The notes under the pieces were generated by a model. The model was given only the letters and a program-made list of their open reading frames with translations. It was not told the DNA's origin and ran no database searches. Below are positions 22,454 to 22,480 of a stretch of DNA of 64,000 bases, one piece after another. The position numbers were made by a program, and so were the translations under genes. The stretch comes from Escherichia coli (GTDB lineage: Bacteria > Pseudomonadota > Gammaproteobacteria > Enterobacterales > Enterobacteriaceae): the NCBI RefSeq assembly GCF_003334765.1, contig NZ_QOWT01000004.1; one strand, 5' to 3'. The stretch's first letter is position 1; every line of letters starts with the position of its first letter.

Positions 22454-22480
22454 TCAAGTCCGGCGGGTCGCTGCCGATAA
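22454..22480 (+). promoter_or_regulatory. Sigma-28 (FliA) class 3 promoter for flgKL
   Basis: GCCGATAA at 22473-22480 (perfect sigma-28 -10) with a partial -35 (TCAAGTCC vs TAAAGTTT) 11 nt upstream; ~34 nt before the flgK ATG. Confidence 0.7.

Follow-up and report, generated by a model that had tools for sequence, protein, structure and literature searches.

The sequence at 22454-22480 of the window, by which we mean the whole 64,000-nucleotide stretch of Escherichia coli DNA that was analysed, is, with a probability of about 96%, the known class 3 flagellar promoter of E. coli flgK, which is driven by the sigma factor FliA (sigma-28) and operates alongside class 2 read-through. The flgK sigma-28 promoter has already been characterised and is ordinary. 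It belongs to the textbook picture of the three-tier flagellar hierarchy and allows the hook-filament junction proteins to be made after hook completion and independently of FlhDC. Its confirmation here adds nothing to the biology, and serves rather to illustrate that sigma-28 promoters are recognisable from raw sequence. The sole mildly new point is the order-wide conservation, in flgK promoters, of a -35 element that starts with TCAAG.

A 401-bp stretch surrounding the site matches E. coli K-12 MG1655 at 100% identity, and each of the 5426 complete E. coli genomes contains this region. In the RefSeq annotation of the identical DNA, the genes run flgN-flgM-flgA on the - strand, flgBCDEFGHIJ, flgK and flgL on the + strand, and rne on the - strand, and the site is thereby placed between flgJ, with which the class 2 flgB operon ends, and flgK (Table 1). 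Beyond the operon, the flgL 3'UTR extends from 25123 to around 25200-25203 (+), some 78 nt, and harbors a strong hairpin at 25164-25192 followed by a T-run. In length this region fits FlgO, an Hfq-binding sRNA of ~75 nt that is sigma-28-dependent (Melamed et al. 2023, PMC10578931), the match being one of length. FlgO has no Rfam family. The Rfam matches above the gathering threshold are rne5, the RNase E 5'UTR, at 28528-28864 (-), the SraB sRNA at 30725-30893 (+), and the PyrC leader at 6744-6793 (-), all of which are to be expected in this part of the E. coli chromosome.

Table 1. Coordinates of the flgK promoter, its surrounding genes, and related sites in the window
Feature	Position	Strand	Basis or remark
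Ten GCCGATAA sites	2403, 14308, 15090, 15481, 22473, 35782, 37550, 38422, 60594, 62462		
flgMN class 3 promoter, TAAAGATT-N11-GCCGATAA	14308-14334	-	ChIP-seq row flgMN, FAT 48 (PMC4183435)
flgJ, last gene of the class 2 flgBCDEFGHIJ operon	21507-22448	+	RefSeq annotation; source of read-through for flgKL
-35 element TCAAGTCC	22454-22461	+	5/8 match to TAAAGTTT; part of the FliA ChIP-seq motif (PMC4183435 Table 2)
Spacer GGCGGGTCGCT, 11 nt	22462-22472	+	Length fixed, sequence variable
-10 element GCCGATAA	22473-22480	+	8/8, perfect sigma-28 consensus
Start zone TGTAA, predicted, not mapped	22486-22490	+	18-22 bp rule (bioRxiv 10.1101/188474)
flgK Shine-Dalgarno AAGGAA	22503-22508	+	AGGAA invariant in 22 Enterobacteriaceae
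flgK, hook-filament junction protein 1, first gene from the promoter	22514-24157	+	547-aa ORF; RefSeq annotation of identical K-12 DNA
flgL, second gene of the flgKL operon	24169-25122	+	ORF; RefSeq annotation
flgL terminator, hairpin and T-run, end of the flgKL transcript	25164-25200	+	Terminator scan

Read along the + strand from 22440 to 22520, the DNA consists of ctgttc, the flgJ stop codon TGA, the pentamer ataac, the -35 element TCAAGTCC, the spacer GGCGGGTCGCT, the -10 element GCCGATAA, the stretch tactctgtaattgaaggcttatAAGGAAcctcc, which opens with TACTCTG, and the flgK ATG. The promoter thus begins 5 nt past the flgJ stop. The sigma-28 consensus is TAAAGTTT-n11-GCCGATAA, as quoted by Hollands et al. 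(PMC2859248), who cite Koo et al. 2009; a mutation of the -10 from GCCGATAA to GCGCTCAA has been made for the aer promoter (PMC2859248). Although weak by comparison with the consensus, the flgK -35 falls in the range spanned by FliA sites verified by ChIP (PMC4183435 Table 2), and the whole element is oriented on the + strand, upstream of the late flagellar gene flgK and then flgL. The original prediction had described a perfect FliA -10 approximately 34 nt upstream of flgK, and the -10 is indeed a full match whose end lies 33 nt before the ATG. Its 5/8 -35 at the correct spacing is recovered as TCAAGTCC with an exact 11-nt spacer, and the flgJ-flgK gap of 65 nt that it reported follows from the positions of the flgJ TGA (22446-22448) and the flgK ATG (22514-22516). 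Where the -35 had been called weaker, the count of matches was right, with the nuance that the departure from consensus has been conserved as well.

The binding of FliA at this position has been documented experimentally. In the ChIP-seq study of Fitzgerald et al. 2014, a FliA peak at 1137565 (NC_000913.2) with a FAT (fold above threshold) of 47 is assigned to flgKL, and its motif, centred at 1137556 (NC_000913.2), is given as TCAAGTCCGGCGGGTCGCTGCCGATAAT (PMC4183435 Table 2); this 28-mer corresponds letter for letter to 22454-22481 of the window. The flgMN row of the same table has the motif TAAAGATTACCCGTCCCTTGCCGATAAA, with a FAT of 48, and is found in the window at 14334-14307 (-). Genomic SELEX with the sigma-28 holoenzyme gave a peak of 27.2 in the flgJ>flgK spacer, as against 46 for rpoF and 15.0 for flgM (Shimada et al. 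2017, PMC5493296). Dependence on FliA has been observed in arrays, in which deletion of fliA lowered flgK 5.5-fold and flgL 4.9-fold and overexpression of fliA raised them 2.2-fold and 1.8-fold, respectively (Zhao et al. 2007, PMC1935009), and fliA overexpression in an flhD deletion strain returned flgK expression to the wild-type level or above (PMC4183435). FlgO, which is processed from the flgL 3'UTR, has also been found to be sigma-28-dependent on northern blots (Melamed et al. 2023, PMC10578931). In a later study, all 52 FliA sites were fused to lacZ (Fitzgerald et al. 2017, bioRxiv 10.1101/188474), and the text of that preprint names fliA, fliD, and fliL as well-characterised promoters without FliA-dependent lacZ activity, flgK not being among those it names; this absence, coming from text alone, is suggestive only. 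As counter-evidence, RNA-seq in mid-log growth in LB showed that fliA deletion lowered flgK only from 318 to 138, a change not flagged as significant, and the authors concluded that, under these conditions, transcription of the dual-regulated genes comes mostly from the FlhDC-dependent promoter (PMC4183435). The agreement of the -35 with consensus at no more than 5/8 positions also counts against the identification.

The mechanism that we propose for the promoter is that of its class. RNA polymerase carrying sigma-28 recognises TCAAGTCC and GCCGATAA, held 11 nt apart, and transcription would begin a few bases downstream of the -10, probably within 22486-22490. The product would be a flgK-flgL mRNA with a leader of approximately 25 nt that ends at the flgL terminator near 25200. 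It is established that FlgM keeps FliA inactive until the complete hook-basal body exports FlgM (summarised in PMC4183435), and, since FliA is held in this way until the hook-basal body is done, the flgK promoter fires late, when FlgK and FlgL are needed. The position of the start is predicted from a rule stated in bioRxiv 10.1101/188474, according to which the well-characterised FliA flagellar promoters initiate 18-22 bp downstream of the midpoint of their 28-nt motif. In the window this midpoint falls at 22467.5, and the rule accordingly predicts initiation in the TGTAA at 22486-22490. A literature search for TSS and dRNA-seq data, with partial coverage of mapping studies, returned no mapped start for E. 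coli flgK.

The operon also receives transcripts from upstream. RT-PCR across flgJ-flgK has demonstrated that flgKL is additionally transcribed from the FlhDC-dependent class 2 flgB promoter (PMC4183435), and a scan of 22000-23000 for intrinsic terminators, defined as a GC-rich hairpin followed by a T-run, found 0 sites. The absence of a terminator in the gap is consistent with the published read-through. Moreover, because the 65-nt gap contains no terminator, flgKL is expressed through read-through from the class 2 flgB promoter as well as from its own promoter, a dual input. The share of flgKL transcripts that comes from each promoter, like the exact start site, we infer. The original prediction had proposed both class 3 expression of flgKL and a joint contribution of class 2 read-through and the promoter in the gap. 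The former is upheld by the ChIP-seq, SELEX, and array values given above and by the conservation of both elements, and the latter by the RT-PCR, the FliA binding data, and the terminator-free gap. The fliA-dependence of flgK that it had put forward as a check is already found in published data, namely in the deletion and overexpression arrays (PMC1935009).

The conservation of the site was assessed by scanning one genome per species with the conserved flgK codons 8-18, an anchor that puts no constraint on the promoter. The scan returned 55 Enterobacterales loci (L002-L056), 3 of which had too little upstream sequence, leaving 52 that were assessed. The genera covered are Escherichia, Salmonella, Citrobacter, Cedecea, a Klebsiella sp., Pluralibacter, Phytobacter, Trabulsiella, Pseudescherichia, and Intestinirhabdus, together with Proteus, Rahnella, Ewingella, Hafnia, Chimaeribacter, Edaphovirga, and some MAGs. 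The pattern TCAAG..-N11-(G/A)CCGATAA is present between flgJ and flgK in every one of these other loci (52/52). The spacer is 11 nt in all loci and differs in sequence from genus to genus. The -10 is invariantly GCCGATAA within the Enterobacteriaceae, and is ACCGATAA in Proteus and Edaphovirga. Aligning the 22 Enterobacteriaceae whose gaps measure 64-76 nt left only four blocks without variation, namely TCAAG, TGCCGATAA, the Shine-Dalgarno sequence AGGAA, and the flgK ATG. Within E. coli, the 65-nt gap is identical in 4932 of 5425 genomes, and the most divergent version (93.8% identity) has 4 differences, none in either octamer and 2 in the spacer. As judged from these sequence comparisons, the combination of conserved octamers, fixed spacing, and a free spacer is the classical footprint of two-element DNA recognition. 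A separate observation concerns the leader. Outside the Enterobacteriaceae, most genera have 79-156 nt between the flgK -10 and the ATG, as against 33 nt in E. coli. The loci with long leaders are those of Rahnella, Proteus, Chimaeribacter, Hafnia, and Ewingella, and the longer leaders carry GC-rich inverted repeats that are conserved within a genus (L003, L009, L010, L017, L029, L040, and relatives); these might be structures that affect stability or translation.

The -35 element merits separate mention. In the window (22454-22458), as in 52/52 other Enterobacterales loci, it starts with TCAAG and so has C in place of the consensus A. Of 13 other sigma-28-like sites that these loci contain, 9 start with TAAAG. 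The C at position 2 of the -35 is apparently selected, because the adjacent spacer has been randomised over the same evolutionary distance. The TCAAG deviation may possibly represent a selected, sub-optimal promoter that would fire only at high levels of free FliA, late or during repair, on top of class 2 read-through, although we consider this tentative and, on balance, unlikely. If TCAAG does reflect tuning of this sort, it bears on the timing of dual class 2/class 3 operons. No published statement of the order-wide conservation of TCAAG was found in a literature search from which several key sigma-28 promoter studies were missing.

The strength of the motif as such can be gauged against chance. 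On both strands of the 64-kb window, the bipartite pattern with at most 3 mismatches occurs 3 times against 0.60 expected, and 0/100 shuffles reach 3. A lone match anywhere in the window is unremarkable, because 0.60 are expected by chance; for a correct-strand match inside the 65-nt flgJ-flgK gap, the expectation is ~2e-4 (arithmetically, 0.6 x 39/128000). The -10 octamer GCCGATAA occurs 10 times, compared with 2.24 expected from dinucleotide shuffles, and is thus 4.5-fold over-represented. Only 2/10 of these octamers are preceded by a -35 with at most 3 mismatches, namely the flgK site and the flgM promoter (1 mismatch). Each of the two occupies a short gap between genes and points towards late flagellar genes. 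The other eight, with 4-8 mismatches in the -35, were rejected as sigma-28 promoters, and the rows of PMC4183435 Table 2 that cover the window contain no FliA ChIP peak at any octamer outside flgM and flgK. Codon usage or base composition (GCC-GAT-AA), rather than hidden promoters, probably accounts for the excess. One perfect GCCGATAA, at 15090-15097 within 15071-15097 (+), falls in the flgA-flgB divergent class 2 promoter region and has a -35 of only 4/8. Among the rows of the FliA table of PMC4183435 that were consulted, there is no FliA peak in the interval from flgMN to flgKL. A 3-mismatch site at 16388-16414 (+), CAAAGTTA-N11-ACCGATAA, was likewise rejected, being intragenic in flgD, imperfect in its -10, and absent from the published FliA sites (PMC4183435). 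Citrobacter sp. Awk4 (L041) has a similar site, TAAAGTCA-N11-ACCGATAA, ~6 kb upstream of its flgK, and this could be at the position equivalent to that of the flgD site.

The expected 0.6 matches per window at 3 or fewer mismatches, and the abundance of the octamer (10 vs 2.24), lend some support to the view that the motif is a chance match and that the conserved gap serves instead in RNA processing or in translation control of the read-through flgJ-flgK transcript. Conservation, however, is confined to two octamers at a fixed 11 nt with a free spacer between them, which is indicative of a DNA footprint and not of an RNA helix; the predicted fold of the 22440-22530 RNA is no better than that of shuffled sequences (z = 0.32), no Rfam family matches the flgJ-flgK gap, and FliA is bound at the exact motif both in vivo and in vitro (PMC4183435, PMC5493296). 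A chance match is thus extremely improbable, and is effectively refuted by ChIP-seq, SELEX, and the conservation pattern in combination. Hardly more probable is that flgK is driven not by sigma-28 but by a sigma-70 promoter in the gap, with or without FlhDC. No point in favour of this idea was found; the scan of 22000-23000 for TTGACA-N16-18-TATAAT-like sequences returned 0 sites, and the only FlhDC ChIP site listed in the range of the window is that of the flgA/flgB divergent promoter (1130152), with none listed at flgK (PMC4183435 Table 1).

A more serious proposition, which we hold to have an appreciable though minority chance of being correct, accepts that FliA-RNA polymerase binds the site and that the promoter can fire, but has it contribute little in normal growth, with flgKL coming essentially entirely from class 2 read-through. 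The promoter would then matter only under particular conditions, for example during filament repair, in swarming cells, or when free FliA is high. The gap without a terminator is in keeping with this, as are the finding that fliA deletion shifts the dual-regulated genes less than 4-fold, compared with more than 100-fold for flhDC deletion (Fitzgerald 2014, PMC4183435), and the work of Wozniak et al., as cited in PMC4183435. It is opposed by the 5.5-fold drop of flgK in the fliA deletion arrays (PMC1935009) and by FlgO, which belongs to the same transcript and is clearly sigma-28-dependent on northern blots (PMC10578931), while the order-wide conservation of both elements implies selection on the promoter. 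A low contribution of this kind refines the main explanation quantitatively without being a true alternative to it, and the identification of the site as the FliA-driven flgK promoter with additional class 2 input is the reading that we retain.

With respect to known systems, the site is the same object as the E. coli K-12 flgK promoter, listed as the FliA site flgKL (PMC4183435), with the identical 28-mer and no difference. It resembles the sigma-28/SigD promoter class in its bipartite octamers, its 11-nt spacing, and its location upstream of a late flagellar gene, but its -35 departs from the consensus with C for A at position 2 and CC for TT at positions 7-8. The flgK promoter of Salmonella enterica has the same dual class 2/class 3 input (Kutsukake & Ide 1995, Wozniak et al. 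2010, both as cited in PMC4183435), and work in Salmonella, again as cited there, links the role of this promoter to swarming and to the repair of sheared filaments. In Salmonella enterica subsp. diarizonae (L011) the flgK promoter has the same -35 TCAAGTCC, an 11-nt spacer, and the same -10 GCCGATAA, and begins 5 nt past the flgJ stop; it differs in having ACACAGTAGCT as its spacer and 32 nt from the -10 to the ATG, compared with 33 nt in the window. The closest relative within the window is the flgMN promoter, which shares with flgK the perfect GCCGATAA, the 11-nt spacer, and a near-equal FAT (48 vs 47). It begins 5 nt past the flgA stop (14340-14342), the same layout as that of the flgK promoter after flgJ, and, since it closely follows the stop of a class 2 gene, its operon too is fed by both read-through and FliA. 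The flgMN promoter differs in its -35, TAAAGATT, which matches at 7/8 as against 5/8 for flgK and starts with TAAAG where flgK has TCAAG, and in the distance from -10 to ATG, which is 43 nt compared with 33 nt for flgK.
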